Assembly (NCBI GenBank): GCA_963662665.2
Contig: CAXXJS010000019.1
Location: 1 to 64,000 of the forward strand
Source of the DNA: Candidatus Latescibacterota bacterium
Lineage (GTDB): Bacteria > Latescibacterota > UBA2968 > GCA-2709665
Direction of reading: 5' to 3'
Length of the DNA stretch: 64,000 nt
The position numbers and the translations under genes were made by a program. Positions 1-17,464 of this stretch are shown in pieces. The notes under the pieces were generated by a model. The model ran no database searches and was not told the origin of the DNA. It saw only the letters and a program-made list of their open reading frames with translations. Within the stretch, counting starts at the first letter, position 1, and every line of letters begins with the position of its first letter.

Positions 1-3000
1 TCACACCCAGATCGAATGGCGCCAGCCAGAGGGTCGTATCGATGGCGTACCTCTTTTTATTGCCGTGTCCCTTGCCGAACAAATGGGCTCCGTCCGTATA
101 AAAGGCTCCCATCGCTTCGCCACTGTGGGATTGGAAGTAATCGGCGAGAAACACGCTTAGTCCGATTACCTCGGCGCCGCCGACCGTGAATGGAAATTCA
201 AACCGCCAGTCGTCGCCGTCCGGCTCCGGAAGTTTCCATCGGCGGGAAACGTCCGGTACGGCCATCAGAGAGGCCTGCCGGGCCGGATAGACGGTGGACA
301 GAATGACGACGGCCATGACCAGAGCGGACGAGGCGACGGCGGATCGGGCGGAATAGTTGAGCGTGACGCCGGAGAGCCAGTCCTGCCACAGGAGCAGTTT
401 GGCGACGCCCTGGCCCATCATGTAGCCGCTCACCGTGCCGAGGACGGCATAGACGCAGGCTTCCGCAATAAAAAGAAAAGCGACGTGGACGGGCGCCAGC
501 CCCACCGCGGAATAGACCCCGATTTCCCGAAATCGTTCGTACACGGATCCCATCATCGTATTCAGTACGATCAGCGAGGCGATGAGGATGGGGATGAAGA
601 GATTGCTCAATCCGCGACTCGACGTGTCGCCCAGCGAGCTGAAAACGGAGACGTTGATGCGCCCGTCCGCGCCCGGAAGGCCGGCAAACAGCACAACCGA
701 AAGCCTGGAAAGGAGTTCCTCGACGTAACCCTCCACGTTCGATCCGGAGTCAAAGCGCAGCGCAACCGATTGGAGTGGGCTGCCCACCTGTCGCAGGAAC
801 CTGTAGGGTACGATCATGATATCGTCAGGGTTGATGTGTTCGAAGGGCATTATTTCGACTTCAGGCTGTTCCAGGCCCTGTTTTTCCCGTGTTTCCTGAG
901 TGGTCATCTGTTCGATGGCTTCCTCGTCGGTAAGCTTGAAATCAGCGGGACTGAGGGGTTCCTCATCCAGGTCCTTGAGCTCGCTGAATGCCGCGGCGTC
1001 GATCAGGCCGATCACCGGCAGCGATTCGCCGAATACACGGACGCGCGACGCCTCGAGGCGGCCCGGGTCCACTGCGAGGAGTTCTGCAATCTTTTCGGGG
1101 AGGATACAGGCGGATTCGCCCGGCCGGAACCACCTGCCGGCCTTCAGTGTTTTGTGGACGCCGGTGACGTCCGCCTCCTGGGGCGTCATACCCAGGACGC
1201 CGAGCACGTGCGTCGAGCGGGCTTCGGACTCAACGGGGATGATCTTCTTCTCACGCGTGTAGTACCAGCTCCGGGGGGCCGTTACGGCGGATTCACCGAA
1301 GTGGGTGACGGCGTAGTCGTAGACGACGTCTTCGAGCGGACCCCAGAATTTGCTGCGGATGAGCATTCCCGGATATGGACCCTCCGTGCCTTTGGGAATC
1401 CGGTGGAATTCGAGAGCCGTTTTGATGGACGTGAACGAGAGAACTGTAAAAGTGAGGAGGAGGAGCGTGGTGAACGTAAGCACCGTGCGCAGTTTTCGGC
1501 GTTTCATATTTGCAATGCCGAGTTGAAAGGCGGCCAGGGAGGCGGAGACTCGACCCACGTCGGTCTCATGCAGGAGCACTTCCGGCACCCGTAACCGGCG
1601 CATGGTTTCGTTGAATCGGGTAAAGACAAGAGAAATCACAAACGCCGCAAGCGCCAGAATGATAAAAGCGAGCAGCACCACAAGGGGATTGGAGATCTCG
1701 AACGCCGGATGCACGTTCGAAAGGAAAAGCCAGATGAGCACAAAAATCCCTGTGAATCCAACGATCTGTCTCCGGATATCCACGGCGGTAAAGATGAGGC
1801 GTTCGGTGAAAAACGCGCACGGGATGACCAGTACCATGAAGAAAACGACGCCGCGCACCACGTCGTTCTGAGTGTCTTTTACGTCCGGATAGGCGCGCGA
1901 TTCGATGCCGAGAGCCGCGCGGGTATGTTTCATGAAAACGTCCCAGCGTTTTTCGGACATCGCTGCTTCGGCCCTGTCCAGGTGGTTGCGGGTCTGGCTG
2001 TGCAGCTGGTTCAGGCGCTGGTTTTCGATGGCGTATTTCTGCATCTCCCGTTTCCGGGCTTCGTTCAGGATCCACATATCCCGTGCCGCCAGAAACGACG
2101 TGCGCGCAAACGACCCGTGGGTCAGCGTGGGGTAACCCGTGCCCCTGGCGATTTCTTCGCTCTCGGCGCTGGTCGCATTCAGCAGCAGGAACCGGACGCC
2201 AATGTCGCCCGAGCCCGCGGCGACGCCTCCGGCGCGCATGGCAATTTTGACCCTCTCTCCCGGGCGCGTGAACAGCGTGCCCACGGGTTCCGTCGGGCCG
2301 AACCCGATAGCATACCCGTATTCCTGCGGCGTGATATTGCCGCTTCCGTAGACGCTGATCTGAGAGAGTTTGGTAAGATAACGTGGATCCACGGTATCGT
2401 AAAAATCGGTGGCGATGCATGGGAACAGGATGATGTTTCGTTTCGAGATCCACCAGTCCATGTCAAAATCGCCGCGGTAGATGCGCGCCTGCTGCCCGTA
2501 GTTAGGCGCGTAGGTAATTTCGCCGGTTTCCGGGTCCTGAAAGTAGGCGCTGACGGAGACGCGGCGTTCGGCAATTCCGGGCATGTAGAATTCACCGTTT
2601 TCGTCGGCCAGGTCGTAATAGATGCGCCGCACGCCCTTGATCGACTTGTCGATGCCCATCCGGAGCGCGGCGATGGCGCCGGCCTTGGGCCGGTCGGGTA
2701 CGATGCTGCGCCTTGGAAAGGTCCGAACGAACCCCTTCAAGCCGCGCATACGGTCGTCCGGATTGAGTCGATAGTCAGGAATGAGCGTGGGGTCGTTCAG
2801 GGAAATGTCCAGTACACCCGTAATCAGCCGGACCTGTTTTGCGAGATTTTCCAAGTTTACCGCTTCCGGCCGGTCCAGGGGCGTATCGACACGGAAGCGG
2901 GCATCGTTCAGCGTGACCAGGGACAGGGCGAGCGTGCCCGCTTCAAGAACGACCTCGCCGTCGGTCTTCAGGTTCGCGCCGGGGATGAACATATCCCAGG

Positions 3001-4294
3001 TCATTCCGCCCGTGGGATTGATGCCGTCAAGCAGCGCCTGATCGGGGTCCAGGCCGAAAGCGGGTGCGATCGCTTGCGAGATGCGAACGAATTTCTTGCC
3101 GAACGGTGTGAAGAACCGGTTGTAGTAGAAGTTGCGCGTGCTGTTCCAGACGCCAATTTGAGAAGTCTGGCTAGACAGGTCCAGGCCGATGAAGAGCCGG
3201 ATGTCGATGGGGTCGGTCATCAGGGCCGCGAAGTGCCTTTCCTTTCTGGCGTGGCGGCCCAGAAAATCGCAGATGCCGCGAAAGCCCAGATGGTGGGCCG
3301 AAGTGGCAAGAAAGAGTACCGTGCGCCGTGGCGGATATCGCTTGAAGTAATTGACCAGTTCCAGCAGAGCGACGGCGCCGCTGGCCATCTCGGCGCCGGG
3401 GGCCAGTGCCGGGACGACGGACATGGCGTCGTAGTACGCGTTGATCACGACGATCTGTTCCTTGAGGTCCGGGTCCGTGCCGGGAAGGAATCCCAGGATA
3501 TTGTGTGCGGTGTGTTTCTCCCACTCCATTCTCGCCTTCAGTACGATATCCAGTTCGCCGCGTCGTTCAAGAAGTGTCTTTAGAGCCTGCCCCGAACTCT
3601 TGTCGATCCAGAATCGTTCCACGCTGTTGGGCACCTGCAGGAATTTCTGTTCGGCTTCGGTGTAGAAAGTTGAATCCGGTTCAATGAAGATGATCTGCCC
3701 CGCCCCCAGGGTGGCCGCGTTCAGCCAGTGGTTCCGGGTGTTGAATTCCATAAGAACGGCCGCACCTTCGAGCGCATGACCGTTGAAGTCGGCAAATTCT
3801 CCGGTGGCGCCGTAAATCAATCGCGTGCGAACGCCCGCTCGCGGCAGGGTGGAGGTCTTAACCAGGTTCGGCCAGATCGCGTGGATGGGAAACGTGACGT
3901 TTTCGCCCGGGAGGATCAGGCTGCCGCCCTTGTCGACGGGGGAGGTTACGTCGAACGGCTCGGCGCGGACGTCCTGGAGACCGGCGCTCTGGAAACTGCG
4001 CCGGATGTGTTCCGCGGCAGCGGCGTGTCCGGGGTATCCGGGAACTCTGGATCGGTGCTCCGTAAAACGGGCAAGGTGCGCCCGTACGCTTGCGTCCGAC
4101 ACGGTATCGAGTACACGAACGGAAGTAGCGTTTGCTTCCGGAACGGACGCGGGCGGCGGGGATTCAGGCGCCCGCAGGCCCAGAAGGGCGGCAAGGTAGG
4201 GGTTGACGCGTTCCGGTCCCACCACCAGCCCGGTGAAGGCCGCGGCGGCGAAGATGAGCGTCAGTGCCAGTCCGATGCGTCGGTTGTTTTTCAT
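1..4294 (-). CDS. Very large FtsX-like ABC permease with N-terminal M28-peptidase-like/PA domain (3' end runs off the window)
   Basis: Missing from the ORF track because there is no stop in the window. Hand-translated segments from ATG 4294, in frame at both ends: MKNNRRIGLALTLIFAAAAF..., SRVPGYPGH, IVVINAYYDAMSVVPALAPGAEMASG, FLATSAHHLG, then MKRRKLRTVLTFTTLLLLTF and VLNTMMGSVYERFREIGVYSAVGLAP (FtsX), ...TLWLAPFDLGV at the window edge. Confidence 0.85.
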   Translation of the reverse strand, partial: MKNNRRIGLALTLIFAAAAFTGLVVGPERVNPYLAALLGLRAPESPPPASVPEANATSVRVLDTVSDASVRAHLARFTEHRSRVPGYPGHAAAAEHIRRSFQSAGLQDVRAEPFDVTSPVDKGGSLILPGENVTFPIHAIWPNLVKTSTLPRAGVRTRLIYGATGEFADFNGHALEGAAVLMEFNTRNHWLNAATLGAGQIIFIEPDSTFYTEAEQKFLQVPNSVERFWIDKSSGQALKTLLERRGELDIVLKARMEWEKHTAHNILGFLPGTDPDLKEQIVVINAYYDAMSVVPALAPGAEMASGAVALLELVNYFKRYPPRRTVLFLATSAHHLGFRGICDFLGRHARKERHFAALMTDPIDIRLFIGLDLSSQTSQIGVWNSTRNFYYNRFFTPFGKKFVRISQAIAPAFGLDPDQALLDGINPTGGMTWDMFIPGANLKTDGEVVLEAGTLALSLVTLNDARFRVDTPLDRPEAVNLENLAKQVRLITGVLDISLNDPTLIPDYRLNPDDRMRGLKGFVRTFPRRSIVPDRPKAGAIAALRMGIDKSIKGVRRIYYDLADENGEFYMPGIAERRVSVSAYFQDPETGEITYAPNYGQQARIYRGDFDMDWWISKRNIILFPCIATDFYDTVDPRYLTKLSQISVYGSGNITPQEYGYAIGFGPTEPVGTLFTRPGERVKIAMRAGGVAAGSGDIGVRFLLLNATSAESEEIARGTGYPTLTHGSFARTSFLAARDMWILNEARKREMQKYAIENQRLNQLHSQTRNHLDRAEAAMSEKRWDVFMKHTRAALGIESRAYPDVKDTQNDVVRGVVFFMVLVIPCAFFTERLIFTAVDIRRQIVGFTGIFVLIWLFLSNVHPAFEISNPLVVLLAFIILALAAFVISLVFTRFNETMRRLRVPEVLLHETDVGRVSASLAAFQLGIANMKRRKLRTVLTFTTLLLLTFTVLSFTSIKTALEFHRIPKGTEGPYPGMLIRSKFWGPLEDVVYDYAVTHFGESAVTAPRSWYYTREKKIIPVESEARSTHVLGVLGMTPQEADVTGVHKTLKAGRWFRPGESACILPEKIAELLAVDPGRLEASRVRVFGESLPVIGLIDAAAFSELKDLDEEPLSPADFKLTDEEAIEQMTTQETREKQGLEQPEVEIMPFEHINPDDIMIVPYRFLRQVGSPLQSVALRFDSGSNVEGYVEELLSRLSVVLFAGLPGADGRINVSVFSSLGDTSSRGLSNLFIPILIASLIVLNTMMGSVYERFREIGVYSAVGLAPVHVAFLFIAEACVYAVLGTVSGYMMGQGVAKLLLWQDWLSGVTLNYSARSAVASSALVMAVVILSTVYPARQASLMAVPDVSRRWKLPEPDGDDWRFEFPFTVGGAEVIGLSVFLADYFQSHSGEAMGAFYTDGAHLFGKGHGNKKRYAIDTTLWLAPFDLGV

Positions 4295-4400
4295 TGAAAT
4301 ATCCGGAAGACGGTTCCGGCCGACCCGTGTTCTGTTGAGGGTGTTGGAGTTACGGTCCCGGCCGCGGAACGGACAGGGACCGGATCAGGACGCCTGCCGA

Positions 4401-6407
4401 TCAGAAGCGATGTACGCTGTGGCCGCGCTCCGGGAACCAGATGACGTCGATGAAGGCGGAGAGCGCGACTCCAAGCACGTAGCCGACGAGCAATCCGATG
4501 AACAGGGGGCGGGATTTCCTGTATACGGCAGGTCCGCCCGTTTTCAACATGACCAATTTGACAAGCCAGGCCAACAGTATCGTCAAGCTGGTCCGCCGGG
4601 CAAGGTACGATCCCGATATGGCCAATCCAACCGGATGCAGCGGCCACCAGACGAAGCGATGCCGGAGGAAGATCAGCAGAAGCGTGGCCAGGCCGCCCAG
4701 GCCGAAAAACACCACGTAGTCCGGATGTTCACGATAGACGGGAGGATCTGGCTTTTCCGCGAGAAAGTTCTTGACGGACGTCGCGGTTCCTTCAAAATGT
4801 TTGGGCCCGGCCCGTACGATTTCCCAGGAGTTGAAATTGTAGGCGCCGTCCCGATACCCCAGTTGGATCGTGAGCAGCACGCTCGCGAAAAAACTGACCA
4901 AAAAGGCCAGTCCAACGGCATATATAAGACTTCGCCGGCCGCCCCGGATACCCTCCGCAATGCGTCCGGCGTGTGCAAGGGCCGGCAGGAATAGCCCTTT
5001 GAAGTGTGACGTGATTCTGGATGCAAACCGTAGAGCGACCCGCGTATTTTCGTTGACAGCCGATGACCCGAGGAAAGGCGCCACGAGGCCCCAGGGTCCG
5101 GCTGGTACGTTCGTGTACGGCATGCCGGTTTCGGAGAGAATCTTGGCCATGCCCACGTAGGTGACGATCACTGCCGGAAGGAGCAGGGCGGCCAGGAGCG
5201 GATCGAACCCGATGCGCACGAGCCAGAGCCACATGAAGCCAAGACCCGCGAACGCCGCGATGACTGCGGTCCGATAGGAGAGCGGTTCGTCCTTGTCGTC
5301 CAGAGGATCCTGCCCGCGCCAGGCGTTACGGAAAACGTCCCTGATGTGCCGTCTGGCAACCCAGAAAACCGACGCGGACAGCATGGCAAACGCGCCCTTC
5401 GTCTGCCAATAATAGACGCCCCGGTAATAGTACGGCGAAATGGCCGTAAACCCTTGCCGGTGCAGCCAGCCGCCTTCGAAGACGAATAACAGGTCGAAGA
5501 ACCAGATGCTGAACAGAACGTCAAGGCTGGCGAAATAGGAAAAGAAGATGGTGAACAGACCGACGAAAAAATAGCCTGGCGGATGCTGACGGTCGATCCA
5601 GAGCCACCTTCCGCGATAGACCGGAAACCGCGGAAAGCCGGGCAGGAAGTAATTGATGCAGTTCCATGCGATCATACCGAAGGCCAGCCCGAAGCCGATC
5701 CAGAACAGGTAATTCTTCGTGAAATCCGGAAGCGCGGACCTTCCACTGCCGGGTTCTTCCGCCATGTGAATCAGGGGCGCCATGGCCGGAAAGGCCAGTC
5801 GCTCGTTCTGCACCCATTGTCTGCGAAAAACGACGGCGACACAGGCCAGGACCACAAATGCCGCCGTGATGAACGTCGCCCACCAGAGGAGGGGAAGCAG
5901 CCATGCGTCCCAGGGGATCTGCGCGCCCCTGGGAGCGCCCTCGAAGAACCAGGTGACCGCATTGCTTTCGTCCGAGGGTATGAGCCACGGACTGATGTAC
6001 GGATGCAGGTAGATGTTCCATTCGTTGACCTCGGTAGCAAAGTAGTACGGTGTGGCAATGTAACCGAGCAGATATCCGCTCAGACCGAAGCCGGGTACCG
6101 CGGCGCCGACAATGCCCATGGCCAGAATGGTGTGCCATTCCGCCGGTGAGAGCTTCCACCGGGTAAAACGTGCGATGAGCGCGCCGATGACGATCATCAG
6201 CGTAAACACGATGAGCATGGCCATGGGTACATGGCTGTAGGTCATCAGGGAGCCATGCACCACGTAACGGAGGTGGATCGCCAGGGCATCCAGACCGACG
6301 ACAAGAACCAGGCCCCATATGACGGACCGGACGGTAACGCCGCCGGCAGTCTTGTCGGAGGCAGCGTCTGTTTGAAGGGGTTCGGCTGTTCGTTCGATGC
6401 CGGTCAT
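4401..6407 (-). CDS. DUF6785/DUF6784-like polytopic membrane protein (OPT-like putative transporter)
   Basis: 668 aa, many TM segments; motifs RRQWVQNERLAFP, WWPLHPVGLA, YRKSRPLFIGLLVG. Confidence 0.75.
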   Translation of the reverse strand: MTGIERTAEPLQTDAASDKTAGGVTVRSVIWGLVLVVGLDALAIHLRYVVHGSLMTYSHVPMAMLIVFTLMIVIGALIARFTRWKLSPAEWHTILAMGIVGAAVPGFGLSGYLLGYIATPYYFATEVNEWNIYLHPYISPWLIPSDESNAVTWFFEGAPRGAQIPWDAWLLPLLWWATFITAAFVVLACVAVVFRRQWVQNERLAFPAMAPLIHMAEEPGSGRSALPDFTKNYLFWIGFGLAFGMIAWNCINYFLPGFPRFPVYRGRWLWIDRQHPPGYFFVGLFTIFFSYFASLDVLFSIWFFDLLFVFEGGWLHRQGFTAISPYYYRGVYYWQTKGAFAMLSASVFWVARRHIRDVFRNAWRGQDPLDDKDEPLSYRTAVIAAFAGLGFMWLWLVRIGFDPLLAALLLPAVIVTYVGMAKILSETGMPYTNVPAGPWGLVAPFLGSSAVNENTRVALRFASRITSHFKGLFLPALAHAGRIAEGIRGGRRSLIYAVGLAFLVSFFASVLLTIQLGYRDGAYNFNSWEIVRAGPKHFEGTATSVKNFLAEKPDPPVYREHPDYVVFFGLGGLATLLLIFLRHRFVWWPLHPVGLAISGSYLARRTSLTILLAWLVKLVMLKTGGPAVYRKSRPLFIGLLVGYVLGVALSAFIDVIWFPERGHSVHRF

Positions 6408-6570
6408 TTTTTGCAGTTCGAATTCAGAGATCGGAAGAAATTTCCGGTTGTGTGGGAATCAAACCGGGTTTTCCACGTCGTTCTCCGCACAGGAGTCCCG
6501 TTTCAAGGCAGATTCACCCTGTGGCAGGAATTGTCAGGCCGCCTGCACGTCGAAAGCGGACGTAAGAGTC

Positions 6571-6599
6571 TTGACATCCACGGTAGGTTTTGTTAGATT
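6571..6599 (+). promoter_or_regulatory. sigma70-type promoter for tRNA-Phe
   Basis: TTGACA-17 bp-TAGATT. Confidence 0.7.
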
Positions 6600-6648
6600 T
6601 CCGCGCTTGTCGCGCAACGGATATGTTGCGTTTTTCCATGGGTATGGA

Positions 6649-6724
<76 letters not shown>

Positions 6725-6850
6725 CTTTCTCCTGCATGAATTTCCGGCCGGCCTTCCATTTTTCAGGGCAATCAGGCTCCAGGGAGGCTCCGGCCATAGG
6801 GGCCGCCGGTAGATCCGAGGGGCAAGTCGGTTTCCGCGGACCGGAGGACG

Positions 6851-7033
6851 ATGATGGCCGTACCCGAACACATCGTGAGCCGCGACCGCCTGATCGAGCT
6901 GGTTCGAGATGGCCGAACGCCGCTTGAGATTGCCGAATTGTTCCGCGTCGACGTCGCCGTCATTCGCGATATGATCCGGCGATTGGAGCAGAACGGATAT
7001 TACGACTTGCTTTATGAAAAGAAAAGAAAATAG
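6851..7033 (+). CDS. Small putative HTH protein (60 aa)
   Basis: GGAGGA RBS; GRTPLEIAELFRVDVAVIRDMIRRLEQ resembles an HTH. Confidence 0.6.
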   Translation: MMAVPEHIVSRDRLIELVRDGRTPLEIAELFRVDVAVIRDMIRRLEQNGYYDLLYEKKRK

Positions 7034-7110
7034 CAACCTGCCGTCACCCGGGTAGACCGGAAGACTCCCGAAATCGCGGCTGGAGGCGCAGCCATAATGA
7101 ACGGGATATA

Positions 7111-7147
7111 GGAATAGGCGTTCGTCTTTCCGACGGACGCCTATTCT
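7111..7147. terminator. Hairpin between convergent genes
   Basis: GGAATAGGCGTTCGTC-tttcc-GACGGACGCCTATTCT inverted repeat. Confidence 0.6.
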
Positions 7148-7168
7148 TGTGGTATTTCCTGCCAGGTA

Positions 7169-7957
7169 TCAGTTGCTCAGTTCTTCGATATCCAGCCCTT
7201 CGATCCGTCCTTCCTGAATGTCGATTTCGTCCCGCCTCCGCACCAGTTCCACCTGCCCGTCGCGCAGGTCCACAACGCGGTCGGACGCGACCAGCATCTT
7301 GTGGTCGTGTGTGTTTGTGACGATGGTGACGCCGCTTTCAGACTGCAGCCGTTGCAGCAACTCGATGATTTCCTGGCCGGTCTTGAGGTCCAGGTTGCCC
7401 GTGGGTTCGTCCGCCAGAACCAGGTCGGGGTCGTTGGCGATGGCGCGTGCGATGGCCACCCGCTGCTGCTGGCCTCCCGAGAGTTCGTACGGATTGTGGT
7501 GAAGGCGCTCGCCAAGTCCGACCATTGTGAGTTTGTGAGCGGCTTTGTCTTCGTATTCCGACTTCTTCATTCCCGAAAAAACCATTGGCAGCGCGACGTT
7601 ATCCAGGGCGGTCATCACGGGTATAAGGTTGAAGCTCTGGAAGATATAACCGATATTGTGGCACCGCAGGTAGGCGATCTGCGCCTGGCTCAGCGTGCCC
7701 ATTTCAATCGCGTTGACCACGACCGTGCCTTTGGAGGGGCGATCCAGTGCGCCAACCATGTTGAACAACGTCGTCTTTCCGGAGCCGGAAGGGCCCATAA
7801 TGGAGAGGTATTCGCCCCGGATGACGTTCAGGGAGACGCCGCGCAGCGCATGGACTTCCTGGTCTCCCATTGCATAGGTTTTCCAGACTTCATGCACCTC
7901 GATGATATGATCTTCGCTTTCGGGATCCGCGGGTCCGGCATTGGGCTCCAACGCCAT
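7169..7957 (-). CDS. ABC transporter ATP-binding protein, LolD/MacB-type
   Basis: GPSGSGKTT Walker A, LSGGQQQRVAIARA signature, LADEPTGNLD Walker B, THD switch; AGGAGA RBS. Confidence 0.93.
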   Translation of the reverse strand: MALEPNAGPADPESEDHIIEVHEVWKTYAMGDQEVHALRGVSLNVIRGEYLSIMGPSGSGKTTLFNMVGALDRPSKGTVVVNAIEMGTLSQAQIAYLRCHNIGYIFQSFNLIPVMTALDNVALPMVFSGMKKSEYEDKAAHKLTMVGLGERLHHNPYELSGGQQQRVAIARAIANDPDLVLADEPTGNLDLKTGQEIIELLQRLQSESGVTIVTNTHDHKMLVASDRVVDLRDGQVELVRRRDEIDIQEGRIEGLDIEELSN

Positions 7958-8005: not shown

Positions 8006-8034
8006 ATGTTAGAGAAAACAGGGGCTTCTGTCAA
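8006..8034 (-). promoter_or_regulatory. sigma70-type promoter for the ABC ATPase
   Basis: Minus strand TTGACA-17 bp-TAACAT. Confidence 0.6.
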
Positions 8035-8265: not shown

Positions 8266-9093
8266 ATGAAGTTTGCGGTCTGCAATGAGTTCTTCGAAGG
8301 CTGGGAGATCGAGCGGGTGTTCGATTATGCCGCGTCGATCGGATGTGACGGTGTGGAAATAGCGCCGTTCACCCTGGCGGAGTCGGTCCACGACATTGAT
8401 TCCGGCCGGAGGCTGGACGTTCGCAGGGCTGCGGAAGCGGCTGGCGTGGAGATTGTCGGGCTGCACTGGTTGCTCGTAAAACCCTCGGGTTTGTACATAA
8501 ACCATCCGGACCGTCAGGTCTGGCAACGCACTCAGGACTACGTAAAGGAACTGATTGATTTCTGCGGCGACCTCGGGGGAAGCGTGATGATTCACGGCTC
8601 GCCGCAACAGCGGAATATTCAGGAAGGATGGGACGCAGGCGACTGTTTTGCCAGGGCGGCTGAATTGTTTTCAGGATGCGTGGACCTGATGGCTGATCGG
8701 GGGGTAACGTACTGCATAGAGCCGCTCACCGGCCAGGAGACCAATTTCGTGACCAATGTGGCCGAAGCCCTGAAGCTGGTTGAGGCGGTGGGCCATCCGA
8801 ATTTCCAGACGATGGTGGACTGCAGGGCCGCGGCCACGGAGCTGAAATCGCATCCCGAGATAATCGCCCTGGCAGGAGAGGCCATGCGCCACGTGCACGT
8901 AAACGATCCGAATCTGCGCGGGCCCGGATTTGGTGAGCTTCAATTTGCGCCTATCCTCAAGACGCTTCAGCATCTGCGTTACAACGGATATGTATCGGTG
9001 GAAGTGTTCGATTTCGAGCCTGATCCGGAGACGATCGCGTCACGAAGTATAGGTTACCTGAAGGGCATTCTGGAGGGCCTTGCCTCGGGCTGA
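8266..9093 (+). CDS. Sugar phosphate isomerase/epimerase (AP endonuclease 2 TIM barrel, psicose/tagatose epimerase-like)
   Basis: IEPL, MVD, HVHVND, GYVSVEVF metal motifs; AGGAGG RBS. Confidence 0.85.
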   Translation: MKFAVCNEFFEGWEIERVFDYAASIGCDGVEIAPFTLAESVHDIDSGRRLDVRRAAEAAGVEIVGLHWLLVKPSGLYINHPDRQVWQRTQDYVKELIDFCGDLGGSVMIHGSPQQRNIQEGWDAGDCFARAAELFSGCVDLMADRGVTYCIEPLTGQETNFVTNVAEALKLVEAVGHPNFQTMVDCRAAATELKSHPEIIALAGEAMRHVHVNDPNLRGPGFGELQFAPILKTLQHLRYNGYVSVEVFDFEPDPETIASRSIGYLKGILEGLASG

Positions 9094-13534: not shown

Positions 13535-13611
13535 GGGCGATTAGCTCAGGTGGTTAGAGTGCTTGCTTGACATGCAAGAGGTCACTGGTTCGAGTCCAGT
13601 ATCGCCCACCA
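13535..13611 (+). tRNA. tRNA-Val(GAC)
   Basis: GGGCGAT/ATCGCCC acceptor stem, CTTGC-TTGACAT-GCAAG anticodon arm, GGTTCGAGTCC, encoded CCA. Confidence 0.97.
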
Positions 13612-13629
13612 TTTTATATTAATAAAAAT

Positions 13630-13663
13630 AAAGGACTTACGACATAAACGTCGTAAGTCCTTT
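13630..13663 (+). terminator. Perfect 14-bp hairpin downstream of tRNA-Val
   Basis: AAAGGACTTACGAC-ataaac-GTCGTAAGTCCTTT followed by T-rich sequence. Confidence 0.7.
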
Positions 13664-13909
13664 CTCGTTTTTGTCGGCGGTGCCGCAATATTCCGGTTCG
13701 GATGAGCCATCGTAGCGACGACCAGGCATGCATCCGTCGCAACAGGAGTATCGGCCAGCGTTCGGCACCCGCACCGTTGGTAGGCACCGGGCGTTTTTCA
13801 TCGTTGTTCTTGCTTTGTGCGCTGCATTTCAGTACCATACCGCACCAGCCGTCGAAGCGCCGGCTTAACGTGAAAATCCGTAGACACCGCGGCAGGAGGA
13901 ACAGATCCC

Positions 13910-15070
13910 GTGCAGGAAACAGGCCACCAGGGAACGCGGTATACCGAAGACCTGGCGGCGTCGCCGTCGGGCTATGGAAGCGCGGTTTTCAACAGGTGTA
14001 AGTTCGTTCAGGTACTCAACGATATCCACGGTCAGACGGACGTGGATGCACTACGCAAGAGAACGTTGAGTGTTCGTAACGTCGTGGAATCTCCCGGTCG
14101 CATCTCCGGGTGTTTATCGGAGCAGAACCCGGGGCGCGATACCGTTTCGTTGCGAAGGGACGTACTGATTTCGGAGCTGAATCAGATCCTTGAGGCGCAA
14201 ACGGTCGAACGCGCCAGGTACTACGTCAGACGGCTGCGCGACGGCGTCCACAAGGTCAGGAAGACGGAACTCAACGACATCAATCTTCTGCGTTGGAAGG
14301 AGTACGAGGACGTCATCACGGACAGCCTGTGGGTCGTGGGCCGGCGGGACTCATCGGGCGGTCATCTTGGATGGTATTGGGGGAACTTTATCCCACAGAT
14401 ACCGCAACAGATGATGCTGCGGTACACGCGGCGGCAAGACTGGGTGATTGACGCTTTCTCGGGCAGCGGGACGACGCTGATCGAATGCAGGCGGCTTGGG
14501 CGCAACGGCATTGGCCTGGAACTCAACAGCGAAATCGCGACGGAAGCGAACAAGCTGATTGAGGCAATACCCAATTGCGACCGGGTGACAACGGAAGTCG
14601 TGGTTGGCGACAGCCGGAAGATCGACGTTCGCGCCGCTCTGGAGAAGAATCGCGTCAAGCAGGTGCAGCTACTGATCATGCATCCCCCCTATCACGACAT
14701 CATTCGATTTTCCGATGACAGCGATGATCTTTCCAATGCAGGAAGCACGGAACGATTTCTTCAAATGTTCGGTCAGACGGTGGACAACCTGACACCGTTT
14801 CTGGAGACCGATCGATACTTTGCTCTCGTCGTAGGCGACAAATATTCCAATGGCGAGTGGCTACCGCTCGGGTTTTATTGTATGAATGAAGTGCTCAGTC
14901 GACACTATGCGTTGAAGAGCATCGTCGTTAAGAATTACGACGAAACGAGATCCAAGCGGCGGCAGGCGGAACTCTGGCGTTACCGGGCTCTTGCCGGGGG
15001 TTTCTACGTCTTCAAGCACGAGTACATATTTATCTTCAGGAAGACCGGCGACCCCACAACCGTTGTCTGA
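13910..15070 (+). CDS. Orphan amino-group (N4C/N6A-type) nucleic-acid methyltransferase
   Basis: GNFIPQIP, DAFSGSGTT SAM motif, IMHPPY catalytic motif, KHEYIFIFRK. Confidence 0.8.
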   Translation: MQETGHQGTRYTEDLAASPSGYGSAVFNRCKFVQVLNDIHGQTDVDALRKRTLSVRNVVESPGRISGCLSEQNPGRDTVSLRRDVLISELNQILEAQTVERARYYVRRLRDGVHKVRKTELNDINLLRWKEYEDVITDSLWVVGRRDSSGGHLGWYWGNFIPQIPQQMMLRYTRRQDWVIDAFSGSGTTLIECRRLGRNGIGLELNSEIATEANKLIEAIPNCDRVTTEVVVGDSRKIDVRAALEKNRVKQVQLLIMHPPYHDIIRFSDDSDDLSNAGSTERFLQMFGQTVDNLTPFLETDRYFALVVGDKYSNGEWLPLGFYCMNEVLSRHYALKSIVVKNYDETRSKRRQAELWRYRALAGGFYVFKHEYIFIFRKTGDPTTVV

Positions 15071-15199
15071 TTCCTTCCCGAGCCGGCTCAGGCATTGGGA
15101 GTCCGGCCGTCTCTTTAGATACGTACGGTAGCAGAAAGTACCTTAAATAACCGTACGACACCGTCGGTGGCATTCTGATTCCGGGCGAAAGGGAAAACA

Positions 15200-17464
15200 G
15201 TGATTCCGAACCCAACCGCCGCAACTGAGGGCGGCACGTCCCCGGCTTCCCAGCGAGGACACGGATTCGGCACGGCGCCGGTCTTTCTCGCGTCGGTAAG
15301 CACGATCCTCGGTGCCATCCTGTTCCTTCGATTCGGTTACGCCGTTGCGCATGCCGGACTCTGGGGCAGTCTGATGATCATCGTTCTGGGACACCTGGTG
15401 ACCATTCCCACGGTCCTGGCGGTCTCCGAGATCGCAACCAACCGTCGCGTGGCCGGCGGGGGCGCCTATTTCATCATCAGCCGCTCGTTCGGAACGAGTA
15501 TCGGCGGCTCGATCGGCATCGCACTCTACCTTTCCCAGGCGATATCGGTTGCATTCTATCTGGTCGCGTTCGCGGAGGCGTTCCAGCCGGTCTATGAATG
15601 GGCTTCCGCGACACATCAGGTGAACGCCGACCCCCGATGGGTGAGCCTGTCGACGACGGTCCTGCTTATCTTGTTGATGCTCGTGAAAGGCGCCGGCGTG
15701 GGCGTCGGCGCGCTGTGGGTCGTCAGCGCGATACTGGGGGTGTCCATCGTCTCATTCCTTTTCGGACAGGGACCCGAATGCATCCGCCCCGACGCGCTGC
15801 ACCTGACCGACAGTATTGAAGATGCGGACTCGTTTGGAATCATATTCGCCACGTGCTTTCCGGCCTTCACCGGCATGATCGCCGGCCTGGGACTCTCAGG
15901 GGACCTGAAGAACCCCCAGCGGAGCATCCCTGTTGGAATTATCGCGGCGACACTGGTAGGTATGGTCGTTTACTCGCTGGTCGCGATCAAGCTCGCACAG
16001 AGTGCGACACCCGAGGCCCTGAACGGCGATCAGTTCATCATGGCGCAGATCGCGATCTGGGGTCCGGCGATTTATCTTGGACTGGGCGCAGCGGCCATCT
16101 CATCGGCCCTTGGTTCGATCCTCGTCGCTCCAAGAACGCTGCAGGCGCTCGCCAGGGACAAAGTGTTCCCCATACCAAAATTGAACGGCCTGCTTGCGAA
16201 GGGCGTGGGCAGGGCGCAGGAGCCGGTATACGCGACCTGCGTTTCAAGCGCGATTGCGGTGGTATTCGTCTTTCTGGGAGATATTGACTTCATTGCGCAG
16301 ATTCTCAGCATGTTCTTCATGGTAACCTACGGCGCCCTTTGTTCGGTCTCGTTTCTCGAATACTTCGCGGGGAATCCGTCCTACCGGCCCACGTTTCATT
16401 CGCGCTGGTACGTGTCTCTGATCGGTGCGTTCATGTGCGCACTGATGATGATCCAGATGAGTTTCCAGTACTCCCTTATCTCCATCGCTCTCATGGCCGC
16501 GATATACTTAGGGCTGCGGCGCACGCGAAAAGGAGAACGCGACCTCACGGCGATCTTTCAGGGGACGATGTTTCAGTTGACGCGCCGCCTTCAGATCACG
16601 CTGCAGAAGAACCACGTAGAGAAGTACGACGGCGGGTGGCGACCCTCGATTGTCGCGGTGACCCGATTCGGCGACCGGCGTCTGGGGCATTTCGACGTGT
16701 TGCGGTGGATCAGCCACAGGCACGGATTCGGGCATTTTGTCCAGTATTTTCAAGGCGAATACTCGTACGACGACGAGGAGCAAGCCCGTTCTCAGGTTGA
16801 TAAACTCATCGAACGGGTGGATGTCAGCGGGGCCGGCATTTTCGTCGATTCTCTGATCTGTCCGTCGTTCCGGCAGGCGCTGGCGCAGACGCTTCAGATG
16901 CCCGGCATCTCGGGCCTGCCCAACAACTGCATCCTGTTTGAGTTCGACAAGGACCATCCGGAGGAAATCGACGAAACGGCCGAGGGCGCGCGACTCGCGG
17001 CCCAGTCGATGTTCAATGTCCTGGTCCTGCGTTCCACAAACTACCGGTTCGGTTACAGATCTTCCATTCATCTGTGGGTGACGGAGGACAATCTTTCGAA
17101 TGCTCCGCTGATGCTCCTGCTGGCTTACATCGTCGTGGGCCATCGCGACTGGCGGCGGGCTGAGATCCGTCTCTTCGCCTGCCATTCATCGGGAGACCCG
17201 GAACGCGAGACGCAAAGGCTCGCCAGCCTGATGTCGGACGGGCGGTTGCCTATTTCGATGCAGAATGTGACCTCCGTTGAATGCGCGACCGGTGAGTCCG
17301 TGGAGGAGGAGGTCTCCCGCCGGTCTTCCGAGGCCGACCTGGTGGTCGCCGGCCTGACCGAAGGCGAAATCCAGTCTGACCAGTTGGAAGACGCGCTGGG
17401 GCGCTACGCCGGTGCGAATGACGTTCTATTCGTCCATGCGAGAGAGAAAATAGTAATCGAATGA
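15200..17464 (+). CDS. SLC12/cation-chloride cotransporter-like APC permease
   Basis: TILGAILFLRFG, SEIATN, GGGAYFIISRSFG, FPAFTGMIAG..LSGDLKNP, YRPTF and a WRPSI C-terminal soluble domain. Confidence 0.85.
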   Translation: MIPNPTAATEGGTSPASQRGHGFGTAPVFLASVSTILGAILFLRFGYAVAHAGLWGSLMIIVLGHLVTIPTVLAVSEIATNRRVAGGGAYFIISRSFGTSIGGSIGIALYLSQAISVAFYLVAFAEAFQPVYEWASATHQVNADPRWVSLSTTVLLILLMLVKGAGVGVGALWVVSAILGVSIVSFLFGQGPECIRPDALHLTDSIEDADSFGIIFATCFPAFTGMIAGLGLSGDLKNPQRSIPVGIIAATLVGMVVYSLVAIKLAQSATPEALNGDQFIMAQIAIWGPAIYLGLGAAAISSALGSILVAPRTLQALARDKVFPIPKLNGLLAKGVGRAQEPVYATCVSSAIAVVFVFLGDIDFIAQILSMFFMVTYGALCSVSFLEYFAGNPSYRPTFHSRWYVSLIGAFMCALMMIQMSFQYSLISIALMAAIYLGLRRTRKGERDLTAIFQGTMFQLTRRLQITLQKNHVEKYDGGWRPSIVAVTRFGDRRLGHFDVLRWISHRHGFGHFVQYFQGEYSYDDEEQARSQVDKLIERVDVSGAGIFVDSLICPSFRQALAQTLQMPGISGLPNNCILFEFDKDHPEEIDETAEGARLAAQSMFNVLVLRSTNYRFGYRSSIHLWVTEDNLSNAPLMLLLAYIVVGHRDWRRAEIRLFACHSSGDPERETQRLASLMSDGRLPISMQNVTSVECATGESVEEEVSRRSSEADLVVAGLTEGEIQSDQLEDALGRYAGANDVLFVHAREKIVIE

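Follow-up and report, generated by a model that had tools for sequence, protein, structure and literature searches.

Type VII ATP-binding cassette (ABC) systems have been described as exporters, extractors and regulators, and OPT-fold membrane proteins as stand-alone, ion-driven importers; a joint operon of the two, and fusions between their proteins, are without precedent in the literature searched. Barley YS1 is a dimeric, proton-coupled elevator importer (PMC9691689). Here we analyse a window, meaning the whole stretch of 64,000 nucleotides at positions 1 to 64,000 of contig CAXXJS010000019.1 (contig C19) in the Candidatus Latescibacterota assembly GCA_963662665.2, in which three minus-strand genes encode a giant membrane protein with an FtsX-type permease module, a polytopic DUF6785 protein and a LolD-like ATPase. 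We assign these genes to a nine-gene system that is real, widespread and apparently undescribed, no description having been found in a literature search whose scope stopped short of subscription papers and supplements. Tentatively, with confidence somewhat below even, we read it by analogy as an importer of modular design assisted by ATP, with one type VII ABC motor that would serve many interchangeable OPT-fold carriers.

The original prediction placed three genes on the minus strand, one of them a giant of more than 1430 residues, and the open reading frames (ORFs) bear this out. The giant gene (2..4294) encodes the first 1431 of about 1510 residues and is open at its 3′ end; it is truncated because window position 1 is the end of contig C19, where there is no stop codon. 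The DUF6785/DUF6784 gene (4401..6407, minus strand, 668 residues) lies upstream, with the predicted spacing of 106 bp to the ATG of the giant, followed by the ATPase gene (7169..7957, minus strand, 262 residues). The assembly of the window genome comprises 4.86 Mb, with the window beginning at the start of C19. Contigs from three of four public sequencing runs span window position 1 and extend 2.2–6.5 kb beyond it, and no indels are listed in them within the giant, DUF6785 or ATPase ORFs; the giant ORF is free of an internal stop, which would have told against the original prediction. The rest of its 3′ end is absent from every other contig of the same assembly. In relatives the complete giant has about 1,510 residues, as in a 92%-identical full-length copy at L003:10001-14536, and the nearest relatives are 86–93% identical, with the source labels Candidatus Latescibacterota, Gemmatimonadota or uncultured bacterium.

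Intact operons define the gene set. Among 14 regions fetched, two genomes (L171 and L172) carry nine-gene operons in the order DUF6785, small membrane protein, tetratricopeptide repeat (TPR) protein, giant, OPT2, 330-residue protein, PqqD-domain protein, small FtsX and ATPase, and a third (L173) has an eight-gene operon. Partial operons comprise seven genes in L168 and six genes plus a nearby DUF6785 gene in L158. OPT2 is a second polytopic protein, encoded downstream of the giant in relatives and past the contig end in the window genome. The small FtsX has no outer domain. The 330-residue protein could be placed in no Pfam family and beside no relative of solved structure, and its Atlas clusters are all unnamed.

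The same genes recur together more widely. The order ATPase, DUF6785, giant, OPT2 is present in 11 of 11 close relatives (among 21 loci). Of 20 regions picked to represent the class, 16 have OPT2 after the giant, 12 have a DUF6785 gene nearby and three have the ATPase nearby. For the metagenome neighbourhoods, the best 80 of 540 giant matches were used: OPT2 lies directly 3′ of the giant in 70 of the 75 loci with enough flank, DUF6785 lies directly 5′ in 25 of 51, and the flank of the giant holds the 330-residue protein in 21 of the 80 loci, PqqD in 18, the ATPase in 7 and the small FtsX in 5. When the neighbours at 106 loci were clustered, the 330-residue protein, the PqqD-domain protein, a membrane-anchored TPR protein and a membrane protein of 60–80 residues recurred. 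The giant and DUF6785 also occur naturally as single-ORF fusions, in P0011 (a cluster of 56 members) and in G128. Separately, the 330-residue protein at G164:C1:264244-265236 stands in a 1706-residue frame and OPT2 at 964380-966314 in a 1483-residue frame, which are possible further fusions.

The predicted conservation of the three genes together is thus seen in relatives, in regions across the class, in metagenome loci and in intact operons. Their description as a three-gene composite stands in so far as they belong to one conserved system, in which giant and DUF6785 are even found fused, but the unit is larger, with nine genes in intact operons. The emphasis on these particular neighbours also shifts, as the most constant partner of the giant is OPT2, whereas that of the ATPase is the small FtsX encoded elsewhere, and the window ATPase is probably transcribed apart. 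In the window genome the parts are scattered: contigs C14 and C25 carry more giants and another is split between C26 and C10, with OPT2 on C10, the small FtsX and an ATPase on C5, and the 330-residue and PqqD-domain proteins on C34.

The ATPase matches ABC_tran in Pfam, and its Walker A, signature, Walker B and H-switch motifs are all intact. Its best NCBIfam models are LolD, DarD and FtsE, all below cut-off, while energy-coupling factor (ECF) ATPase models score far under those of the LolD class. The family model stops at residue 236, leaving an extra C-terminal tail of 26 residues, in line with the LolD type and the extended C-terminus of the original prediction. In a tree of 33 rows (nine near-identical relatives omitted), the window ATPase, the C5 ATPase and the ATPases of the intact operons form one clade with support of 96/99, separate from the other ABC ATPases of the genome, including those of LolD/MacB type, and the C-terminal tail is common to the clade. 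Such grouping with the giant-operon ATPases speaks against an origin in an unrelated permease system.

Presence and copy number follow a common pattern. The giant is present in 155 of 168 Latescibacterota genomes. Copy numbers, counted as matches rather than exact copies, were taken from 58 genomes (all 36 outside the class and 22 chosen inside it), of which 45 are giant-positive and 13 giant-negative. Among the 45, the small FtsX gave exactly one match in 41 and the 330-residue protein exactly one in 42, OPT2 gave one to five in 44, and DUF6785 gave from one to at least 21 in 44. The clade ATPase was found in 41 (two matches in 29, one in 12), and a small FtsX lies within about 1 kb of it in 41 of 41 genomes. 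Genomes missing a part are assemblies of 57–91% completeness. All 13 giant-negative genomes gave zero matches for the small FtsX, the ATPase clade, the 330-residue protein, OPT2 and DUF6785. In G008 (99% complete), giant, OPT2, small FtsX, ATPase and 330-residue protein are each matched once, beside at least 21 matches for DUF6785; DUF6785 candidates reach 68 in a relative. The giant family is large: its first 800 residues as query gave 663 representatives at 50% identity (E-value up to 1e-30), and homologues known from protein records rather than gene neighbourhoods are labelled Bathyarchaeia, Thermoprotei, Thermoproteota, Ignisphaera, Hodarchaeales and WOR-3.

These data bear on whether the three genes are neighbours by chance, drawn from unrelated systems. 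In favour of chance, an opposite-strand unit cuts the window ATPase off from its neighbours, and many orthologues of this ATPase are encoded at a distance from giant genes. For the gene families, chance is refuted by the operons, by the fusions, by the clade that the ATPases form and by the presence pattern common to the parts, and we give it next to no probability. What may be incidental is no more than where this one ATPase copy lies.

Hydropathy and Pfam agree with the layout proposed for the giant, comprising an anchor, an M28/PA-like domain, a transmembrane (TM) block and an FtsX module. The N-terminal membrane anchor spans residues 6–30 by hydropathy (4205..4279; this and all following features of the giant are on the minus strand). 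It precedes a PA and M28-fold head at about residues 60–510 (2765..4117), which was delimited by Pfam, profile and structure-sequence searches and contains the Peptidase_M28 match (E-value 3.4e-6, residues 265–349). An AlphaFold2 model of residues 505–905, with a predicted local distance difference test score (pLDDT) of 92.8, and VIA-align place a transthyretin-like/carboxypeptidase-regulatory beta-sandwich at residues 514–626 (2417..2755), followed by a second beta domain and then a three-helix bundle to residue 811. The sandwich aligns with carboxypeptidase-D-type domains in VIA-align (Z 10.2–9.3, root mean square deviation 2.0–2.5 Å, 79–81 residues), and Foldseek searches with the same model returned partial beta-sandwich matches only.

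An extra three-helix membrane block (residues 810–898, 1601..1867), evident from hydropathy and the AlphaFold2 model, then leads into the FtsX/MacB-type permease module (269..1492), identified from Pfam, hydropathy and profiles, with TM1 at residues 935–963, an outer domain, and TM2–4 at residues 1226–1342, of which hydropathy marks 1226–1339. Here the FtsX family (PF02687) matches above cut-off (E-value 9.6e-13, residues 1233–1342), profile matches are to MacB, YtrF, LolC and LolF, and giant homologues have MacB_PCD matches. Homologue sequences show that a conserved C-terminal domain of about 160 residues, predicted to be cytoplasmic, starts at 2..247; neither a Pfam family nor a solved relative was found for it, and two matches to designed repeat proteins were judged spurious, covering 18 positions only. 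Longer giants, of up to 3,053 residues, have extra Ig-like (Big_5) or LysM domains and in one case a C-terminal WCX domain (among P0056, P0089, P0109, P0072, L163 and P0135).

The head has the M28 fold, with PF04389 above cut-off and a profile match to PDB 2ek8 (E-value 2.6e-28), and does not carry the full set of five metal ligands (H97, D117, E152, D179 and H256 of Vibrio aminopeptidase) and general base (E151) found in active M28 enzymes. In the printed alignment, which spans H97 to E152 only, H97, D117, E151 and E152 correspond to Y287, E302, H334 and H335 of the giant; D179 and H256 are taken to correspond to D372 and D470 from motif position and residue numbering. We assembled 98 giants (96 of 150 listed matches, picked by a length of 1350–1800, plus the window and L003 giants), in which H97 is retained in 7, D117 in 17, D179 in 96, and E151, E152 and H256 in none. 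The pocket is conserved in its own manner, with D289 and H334 each in 97 of the 98, D372 in 93 and D474 in 96. A further 117 homologues, largely archaeal, have His at position 151 in 97, and keep H97 in 67 and D179 in 97. The top single-sequence structure match of the head, PDB 2anp, which we take to be a weakly active E151H mutant, has His at the general-base position as the giant family does. Judged by these residues, the head does not qualify as a canonical M28 peptidase, though it retains a conserved pocket that perhaps has one metal in some archaeal copies.

The original prediction had ATP driving a working periplasmic hydrolase whose product the DUF6785 protein would carry, and this part is not supported, since giants across the family have other residues at the catalytic and metal-binding positions of M28. 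In its surviving form, a head active by non-canonical chemistry, the idea has a precedent in YbbAP-TesA, a type VII system with a hydrolase (PMC12646458). The conserved pocket, and the H97 and D179 kept in many of the mostly archaeal homologues, leave room for one metal site or a different chemistry. With E151, E152 and H256 lost from every one of the 98 giants, H97 lost from nearly all, and the top structure match sharing the His at the general base, we regard an active hydrolase as highly improbable.

Several pseudo-peptidases of this fold invite comparison. The profile matches of the head to active PA-M28 aminopeptidases (E-values 2.6e-28 and 7e-33) are far stronger than those to nicalin (1.6e-11 and 1.5e-10), and a special kinship with nicalin or nicastrin, which we considered, is unsupported. 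Among P0246 and P0279, one giant is labelled Candidatus Hodarchaeales and another has a precomputed Nicastrin (PF05450) match; such giants may bear on the origin of eukaryotic M28 pseudo-peptidases, to which the profile searches gave no special closeness.

The 668-residue protein matches DUF6785 (E-value 9e-100) and DUF6784 (E-value 6e-22) in Pfam. Its predicted model (pLDDT 90.6) matches barley HvYS1 in Foldseek with an E-value of 4.5e-8 and TM-scores of 0.62/0.68 over 677 columns at 12% identity, two HvYS1 chains being the sole matches with E < 0.001. Going by this model, the DUF6785 protein has the OPT/YSL elevator fold of core and scaffold, and the earlier OPT-like call is upheld. The PF03169 profile gave no matches to this protein at E 0.1 or to the six OPT2 proteins scanned, nor did PDB searches with the DUF6785 and OPT2 sequence profiles give any. 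The proton-coupling aspartates of YS1 are D446, D490 and D494; among DUF6785 sequences by themselves, the C-terminal half (residues 400–650) has E426 as its sole conserved acid. OPT2, which had no match in a Pfam scan, is homologous to DUF6785, with an HHalign probability of 95.5% across 314 columns. Of the members of its two best Atlas clusters, 15–33% carry PF03169. Atlas places OPT2 among clusters named ‘peptide transporter’; their commonest taxa, Lentisphaerota, Armatimonadota, Thermoproteota and Planctomycetota, are a lead and not a range. Near its C-terminus OPT2 also has variable insertions of about 140–450 residues (L003:14919-17339, L126:12415-15762 and L133:6594-9812), with PDZ domains in the two longest scanned.

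Most carriers stand apart from the motor genes. The window genome has 22 DUF6785 copies, of which four adjoin a giant and 18 lie away from any, and giant-adjacent and stand-alone copies are intermixed in a quick tree made without bootstrap. Among 41 hand-picked neighbours of these genes, 25 belong to small-molecule enzyme families (PhyH, Gfo/Idh/MocA, UxuA, amidohydrolases, aminotransferases and dehydrogenases among them), eight to other families, and eight have no match. Two paralogues have further neighbours of their own. The giant on C25, in L031 (G000:C25:20832-40531), is flanked by two DUF6785 genes and by proteins of 940–1,335 residues, one with beta-propeller and FG-GAP matches. Beyond OPT2 in L003:17913-20829 stand what we presume from their translations to be two microcompartment shell-like genes and a DHDPS-type aldolase, a possible clue to the cargo of that paralogue.

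The direction of transport could be outward. An exporter would have the PqqD domain, as a recognition element for ribosomally synthesised and post-translationally modified peptides (RiPP recognition element, RRE), and the 330-residue protein recruit a peptide or an envelope-polymer precursor, which the OPT-fold subunit would move out and the motor pull to the M28-fold head. PqqD (PF05402) does match above cut-off in a gene inside the operon, the second-best NCBIfam model of the ATPase, below cut-off, is the darobactin exporter DarD, and characterised type VII systems work outward (PMC12646458). Against this, no precursor peptide, modification enzyme or outer-membrane channel is among the recurring neighbour families printed for the 106 loci (ORFs of at least 70 residues), the characterised OPT-fold member imports, and the giant has homologues in archaea. 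The 18 of 22 DUF6785 copies distant from motor genes, many of them among catabolic enzymes, also sit poorly with export, which we hold to be decidedly unlikely.

Group II ECF transporters combine a low-copy energising module with substrate-specific membrane subunits, which are many and dispersed. The genes described here show a comparable pattern, since the core is single-copy, the giants are few and have a fixed OPT-fold neighbour each, and the carriers are numerous and scattered among catabolic genes; this would fit a shared energising module with exchangeable subunits. For the physical coupling, direction and cargo of the nine-gene system we infer the following scheme. Two ATPases would bind an asymmetric permease pair, made of the FtsX module of a giant and the single-copy small FtsX. 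ATP binding and hydrolysis would move the outer domain, the M28-fold head and the extra membrane block of the giant by mechanotransmission, by analogy with LolCDE and YbbAP, and this motion would load, gate or reset an elevator-type OPT-fold carrier. The head may be a binding or docking domain and no enzyme. OPT2 would be a fixed subunit, the DUF6785 proteins exchangeable substrate-specific subunits, and the single-copy PqqD-domain and 330-residue proteins cytoplasmic adaptors of the motor. The cargo may be small polar solutes feeding the catabolic enzymes encoded beside stand-alone DUF6785 genes, and the window ATPase would be a second, separately transcribed copy. A complex prediction for the membrane parts of the L120 giant (residues 786–948 and 1206–1340) with OPT2 scored 0.01 against a mark of 0.32 and counts neither way.

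The same copy-number pattern and co-absence would also be explained if DUF6785 and OPT2 were ion-driven by themselves, and the type VII part were an ATP-driven machine for their assembly, quality control or sensing. Models for such a machine are the BOS complex of nicalin, NOMO and TMEM147, and BceAB together with the membrane protein it partners. In keeping with this, the head is a pseudo-enzyme of M28 fold, and the nicalin match covers the longest stretch of the bacterial profile (positions 236–560, E-value 2.4e-11); the domain after the head shares its fold with the BOS-complex chain 9c7v_B (Z 8.2). TPR and PqqD domains bind polypeptides. BceAB is described as acting with a membrane partner (PMC12646458). 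The likeness to the BOS complex is tempered by the much better matches of the head to active PA-M28 aminopeptidases and by how common the beta-sandwich fold is (23 chains at Z ≥ 8). Several giants per genome, each beside its own carriers, suggest substrate-linked paralogues and not a single chaperone. We judge an assembly or sensing machine to be unlikely overall, if conceivable.

Several observations weigh against the ATP-assisted importer as well. The ATPase is near the giant in only those 7 of 80 metagenome loci, and in three of the 18 with 6 kb on both sides, and no other part of the system was held by any of seven fetched regions around the second, window-type ATPase copy. The co-absence in 13 genomes is one event because all belong to one family, and the comparison of DUF6785 without a giant is confined to Latescibacterota. 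The tally of DUF6785 neighbours was made without a random control, such enzymes being common in the window genome. A PqqD/RRE domain suits peptide handling better than sugar uptake. By precedent the motor would be unneeded, because the characterised OPT/YSL proteins are self-sufficient proton symporters (PMC9691689), and the four Escherichia coli type VII systems treated in PMC12646458 extract, export or regulate, with no importer among them. In its boldest form the proposal would be of a new ABC importer class in Bacteria and Archaea, with the giant, the small FtsX and two ATPases directly powering OPT-fold elevators, one motor per cell for dozens of DUF6785 proteins, as an independent invention of the ECF principle and a main route by which Latescibacterota and several groups of archaea would take up nutrients; this version we consider doubtful. 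DUF6785 is heavily expanded in these uncultured heterotrophs, and its assignment to an OPT fold with a shared motor makes their uptake substrates open to testing.

The 762 bp between the ATPase and DUF6785 genes hold a tRNA, a small opposite-strand gene and a hairpin, none of them mentioned in the original prediction. The tRNA-Phe(GAA) found by tRNA scan at 6649..6724 (plus strand, opposite to the system) is preceded by a sigma-70-like promoter match (6571..6599, plus strand), which is a consensus match only with its −35 box kept in six of six aligned sequences, and, in a scan of 16 loci, lies at the same position in all 11 of the 11 close relatives. The small gene (6851..7033, plus strand) encodes a conserved helix-turn-helix (HTH)-like protein of 60 residues, outside the system; HTH_23 matches below cut-off (E-value 4e-4), and the six aligned sequences vary at third codon positions. 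Just 3′ of the ATPase stop, a conserved hairpin (7107..7151, no strand assigned; z −4.0 and alignment) is likely to be a two-way terminator, and a further sigma-70-like promoter match, again to the consensus only, lies upstream of the ATPase (8006..8034, minus strand). Because the tRNA-Phe, the opposite-strand HTH-like gene, a promoter-like site and the hairpin intervene, the window ATPase most likely forms, on these sequence features, a transcription unit separate from DUF6785 and the giant. Divergent from it is a xylose-isomerase-like TIM-barrel gene (8266-9093, plus strand), with a look-alike at the same place in L071, L073 and L097. Further on, positions 13535-17464 hold a tRNA-Val, then genes for an N6/N4 DNA methylase and for a protein like amino-acid permeases and SLC12, all ordinary.

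Among known systems, the closest are the type VII ABC systems (LolCDE, MacAB-TolC, FtsEX, YbbAP-TesA, YtrEF and LolF), which share a LolD-like ATPase and an FtsX module of four helices whose outer domain is inserted between TM1 and TM2. As in LolC/LolE, there are two different permease genes, here the giant and the small FtsX. YbbAP-TesA is the nearest described case of an outer partner with an enzyme fold (PMC12646458), but there TesA is an active enzyme and a protein of its own, and the system includes no carrier. The nine-gene system differs from the class in its permeases, one of which is 1,500 residues long and fused to a PA/M28-like head and three additional helices, while the other has no outer domain and the head lacks catalytic residues. 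It differs also in its partners, which comprise the OPT-fold membrane proteins together with a TPR protein, a PqqD domain and the 330-residue protein; LolA, MacA, TolC and EnvC are not among the recurring neighbour families printed. The giant head resembles transferrin receptor, nicalin and nicastrin in placing a PA and M28 fold without the two-zinc site outside a membrane; unlike them it is fused to an ABC permease, and it is no closer to them than to active aminopeptidases. As for RiPP clusters with an RRE, the neighbour families printed, from ORFs of at least 70 residues, include no recurring modifying enzyme beside the PqqD domain.

The likeness to ECF transporters would lie in the working pattern only: the copy numbers fit, whereas the motor class and the carrier fold are others, and no EcfT or S-component families were found in the operon proteins scanned. 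To the OPT/YSL family (PF03169; YS1, PDB 7WSR/7WST) the link is the whole-chain fold match of the DUF6785 model; unlike YS1, a stand-alone proton symporter (PMC9691689), DUF6785 always occurs with an ABC motor in the genomes tested. The nine-gene system offers a direct test of the idea that elevator carriers can be driven by an ABC motor. Its motor has the sequence features of the type VII class, from whose homology a permease dimer and mechanotransmission would be expected. By the evidence presented here the system is a variant of that class, and if the coupling holds it is a new class of importer.

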